From Obrimoposthia wandeli (lineage: Eukaryota), in contig CDROCS010001306.1 in assembly GCA_977020255.1 (NCBI GenBank), positions 310,001-374,000 on the forward strand: DNA of 64,000 nt, written 5' to 3'. Both the position numbers and the translations under genes were made by a program. Each line of letters begins with the position of its first letter. Position 1 is the first letter of the stretch. Of the stretch, positions 10,818 through 57,795 are shown in pieces. Under the pieces are notes generated by a model. It did no database searches. It was not told where the DNA came from and saw nothing but the letters and a program-made list of their open reading frames with translations.

Positions 10818-10850
10818 TGCTTATATACTATACATCTGAAATCTGATTGG
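10818..10850 (-). promoter_or_regulatory. Putative promoter heading the ATPase-to-capsid gene run: CCAATCAGATT plus TAGTATATAAGCA
   Basis: CCAAT at 10850-10846 and TATA 13-mer at 10830-10818, ~30 nt upstream of the ATG at 10789. The motifs match the polB promoter and 51923-51950. Confidence 0.65.
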
Positions 10851-10860
10851 TTAATAAATA

Positions 10861-11010
10861 CACTGACTAATAAAGACACTAAAGACACTGACTAATAAAG
10901 ACACTGACTAATAAAGACACTGACTAATAAAGACACTGACTAATAAAGACACTGACTAATAAAGACACTGACTAATAAAGACACTGATTAATAAAAACAC
11001 TGATTAAAGA
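10861..11010. repeat. 16-bp tandem repeat (CACTGACTAATAAAGA), ~9 units
   Basis: Six perfect consecutive units at 10886-10981, one at 10861 and two degenerate units at 10982-11010. Confidence 0.95.
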
Positions 11011-11026
11011 TAAAGACGAATAAAAT

Positions 11027-11761
11027 TTACACATGATAACGATTAAAAATACGTATTTGATGAAGCATAGCTTCATTAGGAGCAGCAATAGTCCGTTTAG
11101 CTTTAACAAGATTCGAAGCAGCAGTAACACCAATCGAATGAGATAAAAATGCAATAACAATGCAAGCAGCATGTAAACTACCATAATGACCACATACTAA
11201 AATCTTACCACCATTTTCGATAGTTTCTTTAATTATATTATTAGTCTGTTTATAATACTTCATTATTGTTTCTCCTAATTTTGAGTTTACAAAGACAGAA
11301 GTATATTTTAATTCCTTATAAGATATTTTATCCAGTATATATGTATTGATTACATGAGTGAAATTGGAGTTCAAAAGATTAGTTTCATCAAACCCATCTC
11401 TATAATTACCAATATATAATTGATTTACTAAAATCTCACTCATCGCTGTTTTGTTTAACTTTTCTACATTAAGTTGAGTAAATCTAGCACTAAACAAACT
11501 ATCAAAAAGATGGGTCATGTGGTTCATTTCCATACTCGAAGCATGAGCTATTATGGGTTCCATAAAAGCCAAAGCATTTAAAAAATCTATCCGTCTCTTA
11601 TCTTCAATAATTGGATCTATAATAATTTCTTCTTCTGTCGTCACTTCATCAATAGTTTCTTCTCTTCTTATAACTGTTGTTGTTGTTGGTGGTGGTGATG
11701 ATGTTACTGATGATGTTGCTGGCGATGATGTTGCTTCTGGTGCTGAATTGATTTTCTCCAT
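11027..11761 (-). CDS. Dual-specificity phosphatase-fold protein, predicted catalytically dead (pseudophosphatase)
   Basis: SEIL..QLYIGNY...L....FTHVIN, GGKILV..., IVIAFL and V.AKR..AAPN...QI match the DSP fold. The signature HCxxGxSRS reads CGHYGSLHA. The N-terminus is a Ser/Thr/Pro-rich then acidic extension. Confidence 0.85.
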   Translation of the reverse strand: MEKINSAPEATSSPATSSVTSSPPPTTTTVIRREETIDEVTTEEEIIIDPIIEDKRRIDFLNALAFMEPIIAHASSMEMNHMTHLFDSLFSARFTQLNVEKLNKTAMSEILVNQLYIGNYRDGFDETNLLNSNFTHVINTYILDKISYKELKYTSVFVNSKLGETIMKYYKQTNNIIKETIENGGKILVCGHYGSLHAACIVIAFLSHSIGVTAASNLVKAKRTIAAPNEAMLHQIRIFNRYHV

Positions 11762-11794
11762 TTTATCAATTCCGAGTCAATTTAGTCTTATATA

Positions 11795-12038
11795 TTAAAC
11801 AAGGTTAGATTTCATTGGAGCATCAGTTTCATCATATGATTTGATTGGAGTATTATTCAATCTTTCCATTGTACTTAACATCTCATGTAAATGTAGTTGA
11901 TGACGTAACCTAAAGAGTTAAATAAACTACATATAAATATTACTCATGATTATTTTTCCTAATTAAAGCATTGAGAATAACTGAAGCAAGATCTTTTAAT
12001 GCATCCTGAACCTCTTTACATTCAATAATTTCATCCAT
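11795..12038 (-). CDS. Hypothetical 69-aa two-exon protein
   Basis: Exons 12038-11944 and 11909-11795 are joined in phase by a 34-nt GTAATA...CTTTAG intron (MDEIIECKEVQDALKDL...NNHE/LRHQLHLHEML...SNLV*). It is not in the ORF track. Confidence 0.45.
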
Positions 12039-12079
12039 TTTATGATAAAGCAAATCAAATATTGTTTATAACCCATGAA

Positions 12080-12280
12080 AAATCTATTTTTAGACCACAA
12101 CTATTTGCAACATTACAACGTTTGCAACTATTTGCAAGTAATGACATGTGATGTCTTTGTCTCTAAGATAAATCTATTTTTAGACCACATTACAACTTTT
12201 GCAACATTACAACTATTTGCAACTATTTGCAAGTAATGACATGTGATGTCTTTGTCTCTAAGAGAAATCTATTTTTAAAA
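12080..12280. repeat. ~90-95-bp tandem duplication (~2.2 copies) with internal TTTGCAAC sub-repeats
   Basis: AATCTATTTTT recurs at 12081, 12171 and 12266, and GCAAGTAATGACATGTGATGTCTTTGTCTCTAAGA occurs twice. Confidence 0.85.
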
Positions 12281-12805
12281 CTATTTGATTTAGGAAATAA
12301 ATAACACAAGTGTGAAGATCTATATTAAACAAAATACATTCAATCAGATACTCATAGTTTAAAGATTTAACACCGAGTATCATAATCTTCCCGCTAGCAA
12401 AAATGTTCACGCATAGGGGATTGTATTTGACGTATCGAAGTCCTGGGAAGATTTCTGGCTCGTAAACAGCTTCCGATCCCATACTCTTGCTCATCTTGTT
12501 TAGGTTTATTGATGTTTCTAGATTGCTGCTGAGACTGATTGATTAGATTCTTTCGATTTTTATATCAAAAGGAAGACTGCTTTCATCCAGCACTGTTTTA
12601 CAACCCATTATTCTGCATGTCTTTAAATTGTAATTATATATAAATGTAAAAATAAATTACCAGATTTAAAAATGATAATAGTGTAACCTTCACACTTGAG
12701 TCGATACTGATGAGGCTTTGAAGTCCGAAATGGTAAGTGTTGAATGTTACTTACAACCATTCCCTTGTAATTAATATTCACTAATTTGATATTGTGAAGT
12801 AGCAT
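12258..12805 (-). pseudogene. TATA-binding-protein (TBP)-like gene, two exons, with an in-frame TAA
   Basis: Exon 1 has KLVNINY...TIIIFKSG. Exon 2 has CRIMGCKT...ERI*SISLSSNL..SINLNKM...YEPEIFPGLRY...VNIFASGKIMILGVK, i.e. both TBP repeats. The TAA at 12543-12545 is at an expected Gln. The GTAATT donor is at 12660, but the nearest AG gives an out-of-frame join, so the junction is unresolved. Confidence 0.8.
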
Positions 12806-12862
12806 TTCTGATTATTATAAATTATTATTTTTAGATTGCATGTCTTTGTTTAATTGCCTATG

Positions 12863-13213
12863 CTATGTAAATCTAATATTTCTTACTCGTCTAATGATAA
12901 TTGTCTTGCAATATGGACATGTAATAAAACGATCTGAACATTTAATACACGTGTTTAAGTGTCCACATGGTAAAAATGCCACGGAAAACGCATCGCTCAT
13001 GCAAACAACACATTCGGGATTAGGTAAGAGGTACTCCAGATAATTTATACGTTGTTTTGGTTCAGATTTTATTTCTAAAGATTTTAAATCCGTTATATAC
13101 TCATATATAGAATCATATTTGTTACCGAATGTTTTAAATCTATTAACTAAAACGGCTTTGATTCTATCATGGCTATAATCACGTTTCAGCAAAACTATTT
13201 GACGAGTTTCCAT
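12863..13213 (-). CDS. IAP-type RING finger protein preceded by an IAP-like UBA region, with no BIR domain
   Basis: CVVC...FLPCGH..C..C.....CPYC...I is a C3HC4 RING at the extreme C-terminus. The upstream DYSHDRIKAVL..RFKTFGNKYDSIYEYITDL resembles the XIAP/cIAP UBA. ATG at 13213 (the ORF is open to 13297). Confidence 0.8.
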   Translation of the reverse strand: METRQIVLLKRDYSHDRIKAVLVNRFKTFGNKYDSIYEYITDLKSLEIKSEPKQRINYLEYLLPNPECVVCMSDAFSVAFLPCGHLNTCIKCSDRFITCPYCKTIIIRRVRNIRFT

Positions 13214-13393
13214 CTGAGCATCAATTTCATTATTACTAATATGTGAGCCCTTTAAGGATATGACTAATACTAGACGATAAACAAGAATGTTAACCAATTG
13301 AGACTAATCAATTTTCATAAACAAGAATATCGACCAATTAGAATCGAGCTTTAGAGGATAAACAATTGAATATTTCAATTTATAATTGTCAAT

Positions 13394-13783
13394 ATGAATT
13401 TCGAAAAGCTATATCAACCTATGCATACATATTATGGATATGAGATGGACTTTTTGAAGAAAGCTCATAACTATAATTTTATTTTTCCTGTCAACATCGA
13501 GCCGCTTAAATTTGATTTTGAAATATCAAATTTGACTTCTGTGGATAAAGAGAGAATCAATATTCTCTTGACTCAATTCGGAATCAACTATGCGCTTCAG
13601 GAAAACAAATTCGTAATCAAAGGATCAACTGCCACTTTCAAGCATGAGAATGGAACAATATACGAAGCACCTCCTCCTAAGCTAGAATGGATTATCTCAA
13701 TCAGAATTCAAGGATGCAAGATCGGGCCCAGTGGATTGGAAACACCGATATGGAAAATAATTGATGCTGTTAGAGTTGACTAA
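13394..13783 (+). CDS. Hypothetical 129-aa protein, divergently transcribed
   Basis: Intact ATG-to-stop ORF with globular-looking composition and no recognised family. Confidence 0.6.
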   Translation: MNFEKLYQPMHTYYGYEMDFLKKAHNYNFIFPVNIEPLKFDFEISNLTSVDKERINILLTQFGINYALQENKFVIKGSTATFKHENGTIYEAPPPKLEWIISIRIQGCKIGPSGLETPIWKIIDAVRVD

Positions 13784-13850
13784 TACATTTTTGTGTCTTT
13801 ATTTGTATTATTTTATATATATAAACAATAGTGATACTTTAATATTTATT

Positions 13851-14201
13851 ATGAAAATGACTAAAAAACCTACTAAATCATTAAAGACTAAGGTTAAAAA
13901 GACTATGAGTAAAAAGAAAATCATGGAGGGTTTGGGTATTCATATGATGGCAGCAAATCTTTTAGGTAGATGGTTTGGCGGAGTTGATAAAAAAGCTATA
14001 AAGCACAAAAAAAATGTGGATTATTTGAGAGGTATACAAAATCAGAAACGAGTGCAAAAAGGAGATGGTATACAAAAAGGGGATGGTATGCTTGATATTT
14101 TTGTAAAATTAGATAAACTTACAAAAGCATTTGAAAAGGATCCTAGTGCCTATCTTGGTCCAAAACTAAACTTTTTAGCAAACCAACCAAAAACTTTGTA
14201 A
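13851..14201 (+). CDS. Lys-rich core-like protein with adenain-type sites
   Basis: Basic N-terminus with MEGLG, WFGG and two QKGDG motifs. The ATG at 13851 is preferred over the ORF-track start at 13761. Confidence 0.6.
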   Translation: MKMTKKPTKSLKTKVKKTMSKKKIMEGLGIHMMAANLLGRWFGGVDKKAIKHKKNVDYLRGIQNQKRVQKGDGIQKGDGMLDIFVKLDKLTKAFEKDPSAYLGPKLNFLANQPKTL

Positions 14202-14410
14202 TTACATTGCAATATAGATGCAGAGTGTCTTTGTTAGACACTCACGAATAAATATATATATGTATAAGAATAAATGTTACTATTGATTACATAAAGATGC
14301 AAGTATTTGCAATATAGATGCGTGACTGTCTTTGTTAGATAGATGATTTTCAAAGTAATGATTTTCACAATGATTTTCACAATGATTTTAATAAATGTTT
14401 TTATTTCCAG

Positions 14411-15836
14411 GACTGACTTTCGCGAGTGCTTTCAAATCCCTGCTTCGTCCGGCTTCTTCTTCTTCTCCCGTTGTGCGAGTCGAGCTAATACAGGATCCAG
14501 AAATGTACCGACTCTTCCGGTCTGGGATTCGCGGGGGTATGACATTTGTTAATGGACACCGCGTTGACGCCATCAATGGTACAGAACTTTTGTACATTGA
14601 TGTAAATAATTTGTACGGGTGGGCTATGTCCCAGTTTTTACCTTGTGGTAACTTTTCCTGAGTGACTGATCGGTTAGAGTTGGGGAATATTATTTCCAGC
14701 TTAAAATCAGCAGATTTATCCTGTAGTCGTTTCGCTCATTTATTGGAAATAGATTTATCCATTCCCAACGAGCTTCATAATAAATTCGACGATCTTCCCC
14801 TTGCTCCCATTAAACAGCGTCCACCAGGGTGTAAGACTGAAAAATTGTTATTAACGCATTACCCTAAGAAACATTATGTTGTGCATTCTAGATTGCTACA
14901 AATGTACGTTAGACTTGGTGCTAAGGTAGATTTTGTATATAGAGCAATACAGTTTGAACAAACTAATGTTTTTTCAAAATATATTGAGGATAATTCTCTC
15001 AAAAGAGCTGCAGCTACAACAGATTTCGAGCGGGATTACTACAAACTGAAGGTGAATTCTTTATTTGGAAAACTCATTGAGAATCTGATGAAAAGAATTA
15101 ACCTCCGGATTTGTAATACTCCACAGAAGCTGGTTACCTATTGCAGTAAAGCCCACTTTCGTAGGACAATCGAAATCGATACGGACCTTATTGCAGTTTT
15201 ACTGGATAAGGAAAATATTGTTTTGGATCGTCCTAGTTACATGGGCCAGGCAGTATTAGATTTAAGCAAACTTCGTATGTATGAGCTACAATATGAGCAG
15301 TTGGAGAAATATCGAGTTCAATTTAACTGCGACATTAGAATTATAGCGGGTGACACTGATAGCTTTTTCTTAAAGTGTAATAATGTCAATGTTCAAGAAT
15401 CACTGTTACCTGCTATGATTGCTGATGGACTGTTGGATACCTCGAAATTTCCAAAAACCCATCCGCTTTATACGACGCTTAATACAGCGATAGGAAAATT
15501 TAAAGATGAGAGTAAGGGATTATTTAGTTATAGGCAAGGGATTTTCTACGACCAAAATCATATAGCCTAGAGACTACAGAAGGTGAATCTCAGATGAGAG
15601 CGAAAGGTATTAGTCTCCGACAAACGAGTATTAGGCACTCTAATTACTTAGCCGTATATGAGAGTGGCGTTAGCGAGCGTGTACAACAACAACGTATAAG
15701 CTCGCTAAATCATCAAATTTTTACTGTAAGGTTAAGTAAAATTGCCTTAAGTAGTAGTGATGATAAGCGCAAGTGGGTGGAGAAAAACCGTTCAGTCGCC
15801 TATGGTCACTTTTTATACCCGGACGAGGTTGTATAA
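14411..15836 (+). pseudogene. polB: Second copy of the pPolB polymerase-domain exon inside the right TIR
   Basis: Protein sequence matches the left copy, with the splice acceptor TTTCCAG retained (14404-14410). It has the same TGA (14659-14661) and a private 1-bp deletion at 15542-15545. No copy of the large upstream exon is present. Confidence 0.93.
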
Positions 15837-16225
15837 ACTTTTTATATGTGTTGTACATATTTTTATTCTCCTTTGTGATTTTAAGGAATATATGTGTTTG
15901 AAATACTTGTCTTTATTTACATAAATTTGCAGGTTTTTGCAATATAGATGCAGTACGTGACTGTCTTTGTTAGATCGATATAGGAACGTTTAAACATGAT
16001 TATCAAATTATATAATACTTTATTTTATAAGTAGATAGTTTAATTTAATTTAGTTTAAATAAATTTATCAAATTATATAATACTTTATTTTATAAGTAGA
16101 TAATTTAATTTAAATTATATAACACACACACACACTAGATGTATTTTGTTGAAATGGTGTTAATACAGTCTTTAGATAAAAAAGATATATAGATTTAAAG
16201 AATGTTACTAAAAATAGATTATTTT

Positions 16226-16648
16226 TGACCTCACCGTGACCTTAAGTTGTCCTCATGACGTCATGACCTTAAGTTGACCTTAAAGTACATTGACCTTAAC
16301 TTGACTTGACCTCATGAGGTCATGACCTACATATTGTCCTCACCGTGACCTTAAGTTGTCCTCACCGTGACCTTAAGTTGACCTCATGAGGTCATGTCCT
16401 CACCGTGACCTTAATCTGTGCTCAAGGGGGGGGGGGTATGCTCAAAATGTCTTTGTCCTGAAAGACACACATCCCCCTACTTGATGTGTGTCTTTCAGGA
16501 CAAAGACATTTTTCCTGAGCATAGGGGGGGTCATGACCTCATGAGGTCATGACCTAGATTTTTCCCATGACCTCATGAGGTCATGACCTACATCTTGACC
16601 TCACCGTGACCTTAACTTGACCTACATTTTTTGTCCTCAACTTGACCT
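16226..16648. promoter_or_regulatory. Subterminal array of TGACCT/AGGTCA hexamers and palindromes
   Basis: By eye, ~19 TGACCT plus 4 AGGTCA in ~425 bp. AGGTCATGACCT is at 16317, 16544 and 16578, a 26-bp perfect palindrome at 16529-16554, and TGACGTCA at 16256. Function is inferred, not shown. Confidence 0.7.
16437..16523. repeat. Perfect 30-bp hairpin with 9-nt loop, flanked by G-runs
   Basis: 16444-16473 is the exact reverse complement of 16483-16512. An outer stem TATGCTCA/TGAGCATA is present, with G11 at 16426-16436 and G7 at 16524-16530. Confidence 0.95.
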
Positions 16649-19331
16649 TAAAAATTTTGTCCTCAGGAGGGGGGGCTTTGTGCCAGAAGTGCTACATCTA
16701 CCTACTCACCTAGACGGATACAGCAAGCAGTGGCGAGGAAGACGAAAAGGGCTGGGAAGTCTACCACCAATATGCTCACATCTGCCGAGGTGGTGAATGA
16801 AACGACAGGAGATTTTCCCATCTCTAATGGTCGACGGGCCCATATTGTACGAGAGGATCCCAGTCTCTCCGATTGAATTTAGTCTTCTTCCCAGCCGACG
16901 TCGCCTTCAAGAGACCTCATTTACGCTCCCTATAGTTCAGCAGCCATCGAGCCTCAGTCAAAACTAGGCGAGAGCTTGAGAGGCTGCGTCTTCTCTTCCT
17001 ATGGCATTATTAAGCCAGAATTTGAAGATGGCCTAACTCGATGCTGGGTTGCATGAGCTCCTGGCAGTACTGGAGACTCCATAACAACCGGTCGTGTATC
17101 TAGTTTCAAATAGGCAAGAGGATACGGTGGCATGTAGGCTGGAGCGTGAAAGAAGGAAAATTAAGAAAGCTCCATGGAAGAGGAAGGCTTCAATACCATC
17201 ACCTTCGTCTGGACCATCTACATCGGCTGCACCGCCTCCACGTTGCAGGAACTCCTGCCAAAACCGCCAGAGACGGCAATTGATGCACAACAACCAGCAG
17301 TTGTACAGCCGAATAAGAAGGAGCCAGTACCGCTCCCGCCAATACCACTACGTCGGAAGTATATATATTTTATACTTTAATTTTATGATAAAAATATTTT
17401 TTAAATATGCATTTAAAAAAATTATTTAATAGTAGATAATTGATTTTTCTTTTAATAAACAATATTTATTAAAAAAATTTAAGTCTTTTTCATATTTTTT
17501 AAAATTAATTTATAATGAAGACATAAATTTTAGTTATAATGCTTGTAACTTAAAGATGCTTTCTTAATTAATTTAACTACATTAATTAGTTATTGATTTA
17601 ATAAAGTGTACCAGAGATATAAAATTGTTAGTTAAATAGAATATATTCTTTTATAGGAAGTAATTGGATTAAAAAAATCTCAAATTTATATAAATATGTT
17701 CAACTTTATTTATCACTTCATTATTAAAAAAAGGAATTTACTCAAATGAAGAAGCTTGTGACAACGATAGAGGAGAATGTCCGAAAGGATACAAAGACAG
17801 GTGGAGATTCAGTAGAGGAGACAAACTGAACGAAGAAGGCGGAATTGGAGAAACGACAATTGGCCGAAAAAAAGAAAGGTGGATATGGAAAATAAACATC
17901 GAGCTGAGAGAAAAAATATCCTTCAAATTCAAACAGAAAAAGGGCCTTCTGGAATTTTTTTTATAAAAATATTTTTTTGATTTTATTTATTTGTTACAAT
18001 TATTTTTATTAAATAAATATTTGAAATAACCAAACAAAATATAAACAATTTTATATATGAGGATTCCATAAGATGAATGATGAGTTTTTTTGAATAACTT
18101 ATACATTAAATTGTCTCCTGACTTAGTGGAAGATTACGTTATTTTTTTCAATAAACGACACTCCAGAAAGTGTTGCAAATAAAATTACCAATTTACTTTC
18201 AAACTATTTAGGTAGAATTACATTTCATATAATATTCTTAGGATAATTAAAAATATATAACAATATTAACGAGAAAAAATTAATTGCGATCCTGCACGCG
18301 TTAGTCCTCAGGTGGCCCCTCAGGTATTTTCTCACTCTGTGAGTGCACTATGATATTTTCAGTTTTAAGGGGTCTTAAATGGAGTTAATTTGTATTTTAT
18401 GGTTGTGGGGCGCAGAGTTGTAAAAAACACTTATACATTACTTTATGTAATTCATAAAGTCCTATATAATGATTTAGTGGCTGTAGTATGGACAAATTGG
18501 GGAATTTCAGAAACTATACGGTAAGCCATAAGTCGTAGGGACGTGCTCAAAATCGCGTTTGATGAAATTCAAGTATCCTATGCGCTTAATCTTCGAATTT
18601 CAGTTCGCCACCTTGACCACTGTACCATCCACCGCCTAAAAAACTGCACTTGTACATTTGAAAAGTGTATATATGCCTGAGGACATATTTAGATTTCAAT
18701 CTCACTCCAAACACATGCACGAAATTTCACTCAACACACATGCACGGTTTTAAAGGACAGTGGTACCCCATGGGAAAGAGGCGGTGGATTAGACCAGACA
18801 TATTCACCTACTAATGTTTAAATGTTATTTAATCATATACACTTATTTTGATTTTGACTTGTTTTTGTAGTCCCAAGTCTATTTCAGTATGTAGAATTTG
18901 ATGACATAATAAGGGTTAAGGAGACAGCATTTGTCTACATGTACCGAAATGAATGGCATCTTTTGTGATAGTCAAGAAAACTCTGACGCACAAACATTGC
19001 AAATCTTTGAGGGCCATGTACAAAACAACTTTTAATATAACTTAAATTTTGTACTGACAATTGATGTATCAATTACAGGGTTGTTTAATTAATAACTTAC
19101 AAATGTTCATTTTAGAAACATTGAATTTTACAATAAAACAAAGGTAGGTACTGAGTCGTGTATTAATTTATATACAGTTTTCTATAAGCATACTTATTAT
19201 AGAAGATACAAAATTTGAAGTACATGAGTATCGATATTTGTTTTGTGTGCTTCATCACTTCTTTTTTTTCAGCTCAGCAACTTAATTATTTTAATGGGTT
19301 ATTTACATTTTGATATTGTTAGCCGATACCG

Positions 19332-55541: not shown

Positions 55542-55629
55542 TTGTTTGAATTTATATGTCACAAATTTATTGTACCTAATTTTCTCTTTGGTTTAATAAA
55601 TATTTGTATCCAATTCGTCTTTTCTAAGT

Positions 55630-56290
55630 TTAAAATTCTAAAGTATAAAAATTCTGTGGAAAATTTTAATTCTAAAGTATAAAAGTTCTGTGTAAAATTA
55701 TTTTTTTAAACTATAAAAATTGTTATAAAAAATTATGTGGAAAATTTTATTTTTAAACTATAAAAATTGTTGTAAAAAATTATGTGGAAAATTTTATTTT
55801 TAAACTATAAAAATTGTTGTAAAAAATTATGTGGAAAATTTTATTTTTAAACTATAAAAATTGTTGTAAAAAATTATGTGGAAAATTTTAATTCTAAAGT
55901 ATAAAAGTTCTGTGTAAAATTATTTTTTTAAACTATAAAAATTGTTATAAAAAATTATGTGGAAAATTTTATTTTTAAACTATAAAAATTGTTGTAAAAA
56001 ATTATGTGGAAAATTTTAATTCTAAAGTATAAAAGTTCTGTGTAAAATTATTTTTTTAAACTATAAAAATTGTTGTAAAAAATTATGTGGAAAATTTTAA
56101 TTCTAAAGTATAAAAGTTCTGTGTAAAATTATTTTTTTAAACTATAAAAATTGTTGTAAAAAATTATGTGGAAAATTTTAATTCTAAAGTATAAAAGTTC
56201 TGTGTAAAATTATTTTTTTAAACTATAAAAATTGTTGTAAAATATTATGTGGAAAATTTTATTTTTAAACTATAAAAATTTTGTAAACAA
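55630..56290. repeat. AT-rich compound tandem array (47-bp and ~80-bp units)
   Basis: Unit AAAATTTTATTTTTAAACTATAAAAATTGTTGTAAAAAATTATGTGG at 55741 and 55788, interleaved with a longer variant containing TAAAGTATAAAAGTTCTGTGT. Confidence 0.9.
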
Positions 56291-56641
56291 TTTTATTTTA
56301 ATTTTTAATTTTTTTTTTTAAAAGCCATTTAAAGTTTTTTTTTTTTGTTTAAAAGACATTTTGAAAATTTAAATTTTGCGCAATAAAAATTGCGTCTTAT
56401 TCAAATAATTTTTGTAATGTTTTTCGTGCCTAAAGATCAAGAATGAAGCCCGCCCCGATGGGGCGGGTGGTGTATGTTAGGGACTGGTGTGTGACATGGG
56501 TCGTTTACATGTGTAGTTGTGAGAGATAAAGTGATACGCATGTTTTCGTAGTTATTTTCGCGAGAATGGAGCACGGGGGGCGAGCGGTGGGTGGAGTGTT
56601 TCGGTGGTGTTGTTTGGGGTGTGGTGTGGTGTGGCGTGGTG

Positions 56642-56883
56642 NNNNNNNNNNNNNNNNNNNNNNNNNNNNNNNNNNNNNNNNNNNNNNNNNNNNNNNNNNN
56701 NNNNNNNNNNNNNNNNNNNNNNNNNNNNNNNNNNNNNNNNNNNNNNNNNNNNNNNNNNNNNNNNNNNNNNNNNNNNNNNNNNNNNNNNNNNNNNNNNNNN
56801 NNNNNNNNNNNNNNNNNNNNNNNNNNNNNNNNNNNNNNNNNNNNNNNNNNNNNNNNNNNNNNNNNNNNNNNNNNNNNNNNNNN
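56642..56883. other. Assembly gap (242 N) within a (GTGGT)n simple repeat
   Basis: N-run flanked by GTGGTGTGGTGTGG. Confidence 0.99.
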
Positions 56884-57002
56884 GCGTGGTGTGGTGTAGA
56901 GAATAGAGCCCGCCCCGATGGGGCGGGTGGTGGTCGGTTGGGTGTTTCCATTCAACACCCATCGACTTTCACCCATCACCCGAGGTAGTTAGTGATATAC
57001 AC

Positions 57003-57357
57003 GAGAGCGAGACATTCGTACATCGCCAAGCTAGTCTGTGACATATATGAGAGCGAGACATCCGTACATCGCAGAGTTAGTCTGTGACCTATATGAGAGC
57101 GAGACATCCGTACATCGCAGAGCTAGTCTGTGACCTATATGAGAGCGAGATATCCGTACATCGCAGAGCTAGTCTGTGACCTATATGAGAGCGAGACATC
57201 CGTACATCGCAGAGTTAGTCTGTGACCTATATGAGAGCGAGACATCCGTACATCGCAGAGCTAGTCTGTGACCTATATGAGAGCGAGACATCCGTACATC
57301 GCAGAGCTAGTCTGTGACCTATATAAGAGTGAGATATCCGTACATCGCAGGGCTAGT
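57003..57357. repeat. 46-bp tandem minisatellite, ~8 units
   Basis: GAGAGCGAGACATCCGTACATCGCAGAGCTAGTCTGTGACCTATAT at 57003, 57049, 57095 ... 57325; no unique spacers. Confidence 0.95.
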
Positions 57358-57360
57358 AAT

Positions 57361-57795
57361 GAAATAATGAGCAAAAAATAGAAATTTCCTTTATGTTGAC
57401 AGTTTTAAAGATAAATATTTTGTATCCTAACAAATTAGTTTCGACATTTTCTTTTTTAAATCGAGGAATCTTCATAGAAAATTCAACCGCAATAATTCTC
57501 AACGGAATATAAATTAAATGTTTTTCAGAAACTCTGAATTTACATTTGACTCAAATGCTTTAACAGTTTTATTTTAAAATAAAACATATATATATTGATA
57601 TATTGATATAAACATTAGAATCTTGAGACATTTTAAAGTTAGCTTCTTCATAGGATGTACACTGTAAAAGTGAACTACAGAAGGTTGTCAACCGAATATT
57701 CCAGTTTTAGCATTCTTTCATACTGAATATCGATTTGATAATTTTTTGACTGAAGATATTTACTTTGATTTGAGAATTTTTCCATACTGAATTGA
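57361..57795. repeat. 435-bp direct repeat, copy 1 (copy 2 at 61950-62384)
   Basis: GAAATAATGAGCAAAAAATAG...CCATACTGAATTGA; no differences noticed between the copies. Confidence 0.9.

Follow-up and report, generated by a model that had tools for sequence, protein, structure and literature searches.

A TBP-like gene in a Maverick element

The window, a stretch of 64,000 nucleotides from the genome of Obrimoposthia wandeli, carries at its left end a Maverick/Polinton element, and within this full-length element lies a two-exon gene of the TBP family on the minus strand (12805-12258; Table 1). The gene set of the element comprises a protein-primed DNA polymerase B (pPolB), a protease, putative major and minor capsid genes, an integrase, an A32-like packaging ATPase, a phosphatase and a RING gene. 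The polymerase and the rve integrase exceed the Pfam cut-offs, and the weak matches of the ATPase (E 0.02) and the protease (E 0.01) are accompanied by homology to the genes of related elements. The putative major capsid protein (MCP) corresponds to a conserved ORF of 408-436 aa at the expected place, which has no Pfam match and whose double jelly-roll is putative. These core genes, the inverted repeats and the 6-bp target duplication bear out the Maverick context that a preliminary description of this DNA had assigned to the TBP-like gene. The insertion itself is dead: the pPolB, capsid and ATPase genes are broken in it, as is the TBP gene.

Exon 1 finds no match when searched alone against Pfam, and corresponds to the N-terminal 42 residues of an intronless relative with 54% identity. 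Exon 2 starts at about 12622 and reads CRIMGCK ... YEPEIFPGLRY ... IFASGKIMILGVK; with X at the stop it scores 46.5 bits against the Pfam TBP family (PF00352, cut-off 22.9), and TBPs account for 35 of its 38 PDB sequence matches, these being the 35 best. Both halves of the TBP saddle recognised in the preliminary description are present, on the minus strand and split over two reading frames. The same description had noticed a nonsense codon, which we find at 12545-12543, and a splice junction that it could not place, which the intact copies of the gene now settle. In the 20 fetched copies, on which the intron and stop counts rest, a phase-1 intron of 37-38 nt with canonical ends is seen in 17 and splits the Gly codon of IFKSG, the acceptor is non-canonical in three (the window copy, L005 and L007), and the nonsense codon occurs in the window copy and L005 only. 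Because the stop is found in two of 20 copies and the canonical intron in 17, the window copy is to be read as doubly broken and the junction as an intron; the existence of an intronless form (family B, below) fixes the exon junction independently. The window copy, with its premature stop and non-canonical acceptor, is thus a dead gene. L005 (G000:C1306:286154-286859) lies about 36 kb from the window copy on the same contig and is inverted relative to it; since it shares both lesions, the two are likely related by local duplication or conversion.

The TBP gene is flanked by cargo, namely a dual-specificity phosphatase-like gene and a RING finger gene (11027-11761; 12863-13213 (-)). The conserved neighbouring ORF at 13394 has no significant Pfam match, nor did the Atlas yield a usable one, and the fold of a family member from a related element (L058:1788-2135, pLDDT 92) is predicted to be an OB-fold of the T7 gp2.5/Enc34 type of single-strand DNA-binding proteins (SSBs), with Z 8.1-8.6 to phage SSBs. 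On the strength of this predicted fold we rejected the ORF as a transcription partner of the TBP-like protein.

Table 1. Features of the Maverick element and its TBP-like gene, in window coordinates
Feature	Position	Strand	Remarks
Maverick/Polinton element	1-16706		Begins 232 nt left of the window; ~2.25-kb terminal inverted repeats; 6-bp target duplication
Protein-primed DNA polymerase B	460-4516	-	Broken; 3' half repeated in right inverted repeat
YATAAACR before pPolB	4581-4588	-	
TAGTATATAAGCA, canonical TATA before pPolB	4616-4628	-	Likely read by host TBP
Two YATAAACR words before ORF 5212-4703	5240-5260	-	
YATAAACR before protease	5655-5662	-	
Putative major capsid protein	5658-6887	-	Interrupted by one stop; identified from location, size and homology; without Pfam match
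YATAAACR before major capsid gene	6922-6929	-	42 nt before ATG
YATAAACR before ORF 7249-6887	7341-7348	-	
rve integrase with chromodomain	8271-9299	-	Pfam
YATAAACR before putative minor capsid gene	8335-8342	-	~70 nt upstream of integrase stop
YATAAACR before small MG ORF and integrase	9388-9395	-	
A32-like packaging ATPase	9816-10480	-	Frameshift and stop in window copy; upstream end approximate
YATAAACR before pX-like gene	9844-9851	-	32 nt before the gene, inside ATPase frame
YATAAACR before ATPase	10495-10502	-	
TAGTATATAAGCA, canonical TATA before ORF 10789-10511	10818-10830	-	Putative role
TBP-like gene, exon 2	12258-12622	-	S5 and complete C-terminal lobe, YEPEIFP stirrup; Pfam and PDB matches
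TBP-like gene, premature stop of window copy	12543-12545	-	Common to 2/20 copies
TBP-like gene, intron	12623-12660	-	38 nt, AT-rich, phase 1; acceptor non-canonical in window copy; canonical ends in 17/20 copies
TBP-like gene, exon 1	12661-12805	-	Reduced N-terminal lobe, S1-S4; ends IIFKS/G
YATAAACR before first plus-strand gene	13316-13323	+	No upstream gene on that strand
Neighbour of TBP gene	13394-13783	+	Predicted T7 gp2.5-type single-strand DNA-binding family, from fold of relative L058

Distribution, phylogeny and selection

A DNA search of the host genome returned at least 40 long matches to the gene at 94-100% identity (the best 40 of 3,946 candidates were scored). The PF00352 search of the same genome, in which the best 150 of 19,768 candidates were scored, led to 30 fetched TBP loci, ten of host type and 20 adjoining element genes. 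The element loci of this genome belong to at least four Maverick families. Family B (nine loci) has no intron, and its complete members encode 144 aa; families C and D have 39-nt introns that differ in sequence and interrupt the same codon as in family A (read by eye in five loci for family C). Introns of 36-39 nt and of unrelated sequence are thus seen at one codon in three host Maverick families (L002-L020, L031-L045, L050), and in family B and the metagenomic homologues that codon is uninterrupted. We read this as an intron gain that took place within the virus-like element.

With the intronless form as query we obtained 43 clusters at 90% identity, and a search with its profile at E<=1e-30 yielded 63 representatives. 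Confirmation succeeded for 98 of the 330 metagenomic candidates, of which 80 loci were retained; another element gene lies beside the TBP gene in 50 of these 80 loci, including all 17 that are longer than 4.4 kb. From 49 IMG/VR candidates the TBP alignment yielded a single locus, on a contig that resembles a giant virus and has an ordinary TBP, and three capsid or ATPase scans of IMG/VR found none. In a tree of 77 rows, a quick LG+G4 run with long branches, 52 element-type rows fall on one side of a single branch (SH-aLRT 99), apart from the cellular, host and giant-virus TBPs and with two unplaced rows outside; among them, the 29 rows of the short form group together as a subclade (SH-aLRT 98).

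The dN/dS ratio is 0.13-0.14 between the subfamilies of family A, which supports purifying selection. It ranges from 0.06 to 0.45 in 16 metagenomic pairs with dS of 0.05-0.7, and no listed metagenomic pair exceeds 0.50. Near-identical copies (pooled values of 0.39 and 0.54) and four pairs within family C (0.27-0.73) gave higher values, as expected from decay after insertion. The preliminary description had named a recently captured, decaying host retrocopy without purifying selection as the finding that would speak against it. The broken state of the window copy and the weak selection among near-identical copies (the pooled 0.54) might suggest such an origin, in which the gene would nest with host TBP and evolve neutrally. 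The element proteins, however, form a long-branch clade of their own, while host and animal TBPs are five-fold closer in the tree; selection between the families is purifying, and the intron position is absent from the host TBP reading frame L021. We regard a recently captured, decaying host copy as virtually impossible: the element TBP is an element-borne clade under purifying selection. The host itself has several TBP paralogues, which include a head-to-head pair and a pair of divergent single-frame copies, as well as several Brf-like genes (L021-L030; L156-L159).

Predicted structure of the element TBP

The fold of a natural intronless relative of 144 aa (P0001; 35 sequences) is predicted with pLDDT 94.4 as a ten-strand sheet with only two helices, both in the C-lobe, whereas H1 and H2 of the N-lobe are absent. 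TBP is the top structural match of the model in VIA-align (Z 13.6, rmsd 2.4; next non-TBP Z 6.8), with 144 of 144 residues covered over human TBP 164-336, and TBPs are also the top matches in Foldseek. The model of this relative thus argues for the TBP saddle fold that had been proposed for the window gene.

The predicted two-lobed ten-strand saddle is shared with cellular and archaeal TBPs (PF00352; 5fur_A, 7o4i_O, 1mp9_B), and so are both L5.1 Phe, the Phe-Pro of the C-lobe stirrup and the TFIIB-binding Glu pair at C.L3.2/C.L3.4. In contrast to cellular TBP, the element protein has about 145-170 aa with 24-28% identity, the short element subclade lacks H1 and H2 with a gap at the basic cluster of H2, a short P-x-Q loop takes the place of the first N-lobe Phe, and polar changes are fixed on the DNA face. 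Three of the four intercalating Phe are therefore kept and no N-terminal extension is present, both as the preliminary description had it; the absence of both N-lobe helices goes beyond it. As one intercalating Phe is lost, DNA bending may be weak. The newly fixed strand residues are Arg and Met in S5 and Ser and Thr in S1', and an Asn is fixed two residues before the C-lobe Phe, all at positions that, from TBP structures, we take to face the DNA. The stirrup motif E-x-F is found in 173 of 185 proteins, its first position being E in 147 and D in 15 (162/173). Longer members of the clade (~165-185 aa) keep helix-length segments and have the P-x-Q loop.

Searched with a profile built from only three TFIIBs, neither the window element nor any of 14 element loci gave a TFIIB homologue; the host positive control was found. 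No RNA polymerase gene was found in the elements, and to our knowledge Mavericks encode none.

An oriented word before element genes

A de novo search recovered ATAAAC, which precedes 70 of the 126 gene starts examined where chance would give 9.4. Across 19 core-module stretches ATAAACR occurs 145 times in the sense and 9 times in the antisense orientation (36 expected); the corresponding counts for GTAAACR are 27 and 11. In 28 TBP-bearing loci, which are related to one another, the word YATAAACR, or (T/C)ATAAAC(A/G), stands before 85 of the 195 ORF starts. Its distance to the ATG has a median of 44 nt and a 5th percentile of 32 nt. The word is found before most packaging and capsid genes (ATPase 26/29, MCP 13/14, minor capsid 8/11), before the integrase (11/15) and the counterparts of ORF6887 (9/9) and ORF4703 (9/11), as well as before pX (3/3), the protease (3/5) and the SSB-like gene (5/12). 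The TBP gene is never preceded by it (0/65), and has a canonical TATA-like box, by a pattern of our own, in only 23 of 65 cases. C at position 7 is seen in 66 of 116 cases in elements with the short TBP and in 36 of 54 with the long TBP, against 64 of 541 in host flanks.

Two controls bear on the association of word and gene. Nine distant Polinton contigs without a detectable TBP have the word at one of 71 ORF starts; as these contigs are partial, the absence of TBP applies to the DNA examined. In a second Maverick family of the same host, which has pPolB, rve, pX and a double jelly-roll, no TBP was found in 20 stretches (five of five positive controls were found), and the word stands at three of 67 starts, one of them belonging to a nested gene of the first lineage. 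Such nested first-lineage ORFs within the second-family stretches have the word in six of 11 cases. With only two TBP-less lineages compared, shared ancestry can explain the co-occurrence of gene and word.

The preliminary description had named TAGTATATAAGCA for a test of binding by the protein. This is a canonical TATA box with only two exact sites in the window, where four matches with up to two mismatches compare with 3.9 expected; it is the word (T/C)ATAAAC(A/G) that tracks the gene. Both TAGTATATAAGCA and TATATAAG were rejected as targets, since they are not above chance in the window and stand before only seven of 195 ORF starts. More likely, TAGTATATAAGCA is a TATA box read by host TBP.

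A possible late-gene switch

What could be the role of a stripped-down TBP in these elements? We consider it probable that the protein acts as a switch for late genes, binding YATAAACR and recruiting host TFIIB and Pol II. The TBP gene would be transcribed early, from a promoter read by host TBP, and its transcript spliced. The family-fixed changes on the DNA face would then accept C at position 7, which is avoided by canonical TATA boxes. This position, where the word departs from the canonical box, presumably lies in the half read by the N-lobe, and the N-lobe is the remodelled one. The stirrup that has been kept would bind host TFIIB and bring Pol II, and the loss of helix H2 would free the protein from control by Mot1/BTAF1, TAF1, TFIIA and Brf-type factors. 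As an outcome, the capsid, packaging and integrase genes would be driven via YATAAACR. The loss of helices is not what sets the specificity, because the longer members keep both and yet share the word. For the residues concerned, Ravarani et al. (2020, PMC7221094) describe the Glu pair as binding TFIIB and the basic H2 cluster as serving TFIIA, Mot1, Brf and TAF1. Capsid genes of a coral polintovirus form an expression cluster of their own (PMC11131425), which fits a staged programme.

The word could also be read by a host factor, either TBP, one of its paralogues or a forkhead protein, with the element TBP being accessory or acting elsewhere. ATAAACA fits a forkhead site, the usual forkhead core being GTAAACR, and the host has several TBP paralogues. 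By its title, PDB entry 1qn3 is a crystal structure of wild-type TBP with a C(-25) TATA variant, so host TBP may read YATAAACR, and the contrast between lineages is small. Nevertheless, the strict sense orientation of the word counts against a host factor, as does its complete exclusion from the TBP gene; GTAAACR is not enriched and stands before only eight of 195 starts, and the second Maverick family, exposed to the same host, is without both gene and word. We therefore take a host reader to be rather unlikely. Competition with host TBP, which the preliminary description had offered beside the redirection of host Pol II to element promoters, persists only as a minor rival to that redirection, which we consider likely. 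A protein acting as a decoy on TFIIB or on TATA boxes would form no productive complex and would damp host transcription. Retention of the Glu pair together with the loss of one Phe and of the TFIIA-binding surface would suit such a decoy. It would, however, leave unexplained why a private, oriented word lies at TATA-like spacing before late-type genes and is missing before the TBP gene, and we find it quite unlikely.

Another possibility is that the protein bends DNA in replication, packaging or 3'-end formation, and that the word is a terminator or a packaging mark. The frequent adjacency of the TBP gene and the predicted single-strand DNA-binding protein gene could be taken in this sense. 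The word is often near stop codons, and it is about as common at the heads of gene runs (17/58) as at their tails (17/67); downstream of many tails lie short or broken ORFs. Conservation of the TFIIB stirrup stands against such a function. The spacing to the next ATG has a floor of about 32 nt, 25 of the 44 sites within an upstream ORF lie at least 40 nt before its stop, where a poly(A) signal would come too early, and in the window element the word also precedes the first gene on the plus strand. We take such a role to be very unlikely.

Returning to the late-gene switch, we lean, if only slightly, towards a wider reading, in which a large lineage of animal Mavericks would run a two-stage programme through one small gene. 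An early minimal TBP, a private late promoter YATAAACR, direct use of host TFIIB and the loss of the regulator surface would make this a third viral solution beside the herpesvirus vTBP and the TBP-TFIIB pairs of giant viruses, built on what may be among the smallest natural two-lobed TBPs.

Comparison with other viral TBPs

The TBPs of giant viruses resemble the element protein in being encoded by a virus, in keeping the L5.1 Phe and in having lost the N-lobe regulator signature (PMC7221094). According to the same source (Ravarani et al. 2020), the Glu pair of Nucleocytoviricota TBPs is variable, with about 40% at C.L3.2, and mostly lost, and almost all Nucleocytoviricota with a TBP have a viral TFIIB. 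The elements, in contrast, keep the Glu pair, and neither a TFIIB nor an RNA polymerase was found in those searched. The herpesvirus vTBP (KSHV ORF24) would be a functional analogue, as a viral TBP mimic with a polar DNA face that uses a non-canonical late TATA word and host Pol II. The late word of beta- and gamma-herpesviruses is TATTWAA, and ORF24, the viral TBP mimic, is a large protein that binds the Pol II CTD directly through an N-terminal domain, is without the TFIIB acidic residues and requires five partner proteins (PMC12529657, PMC7498053). Unlike ORF24, BcRF1 and UL87, the element protein consists of the saddle alone, with no N-terminal extension and with the acidic pair kept, and the herpes proteins are only weak structural matches to its model (E>=1e-3).

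Viral TBPs are thus known, and a Maverick TBP was found in print only as a figure-legend label. The MELD virus maps of Starrett et al. (2021, PMC8502044) have a 'TBP' legend entry, for an element with an adintovirus-like PolB; the entry belongs to the section of the paper on non-animal datasets, and the text portions of the paper give no family, structure, motif or mechanism for it, nor does the text of one supplement contain a match for TBP. This legend label was the only mention in the freely accessible article texts covered, and the terms TBP and TATA are absent from the text portions of PMC8097293, PMC11131425 (with one supplement) and bioRxiv 10.64898/2026.06.19.733378. The resolved intron, the selection on the gene, the absence of the word before the TBP gene (0/65) and the TBP-less control in the same host were examined directly here. 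The timing of capsid gene expression bears on whether Mavericks are true viruses, and a defined factor with a defined promoter word makes the question of timing directly testable. Having kept the TFIIB stirrup and dropped the regulator-binding helix, the element TBP is also a natural deletion experiment, which would reveal the minimal requirements of TBP and the ways in which its specificity can be altered.

Other features of the window

The inverted repeats of about 2.25 kb (window 1-2022 and 14275-16706) are unusually long and duplicate the 3' half of pPolB. Their inner boundary lies inside an interruption of pPolB of about 185 nt, which is absent from the relative L058. In most related loci the integrase is preceded by a small Met-Gly ORF with Cys-Cys (window ~9369-9290 (-)), which overlaps the integrase start in many elements; its product is possibly a lipid-anchored peptide. 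The second Maverick family (L162-L181) has a PLA2-like domain fused to the integrase, and copies of either lineage are often found inserted within the other. Unrelated to the TBP gene, tandem arrays with units of 34/47 nt and 46 nt surround a stretch of N at 55600-57400.
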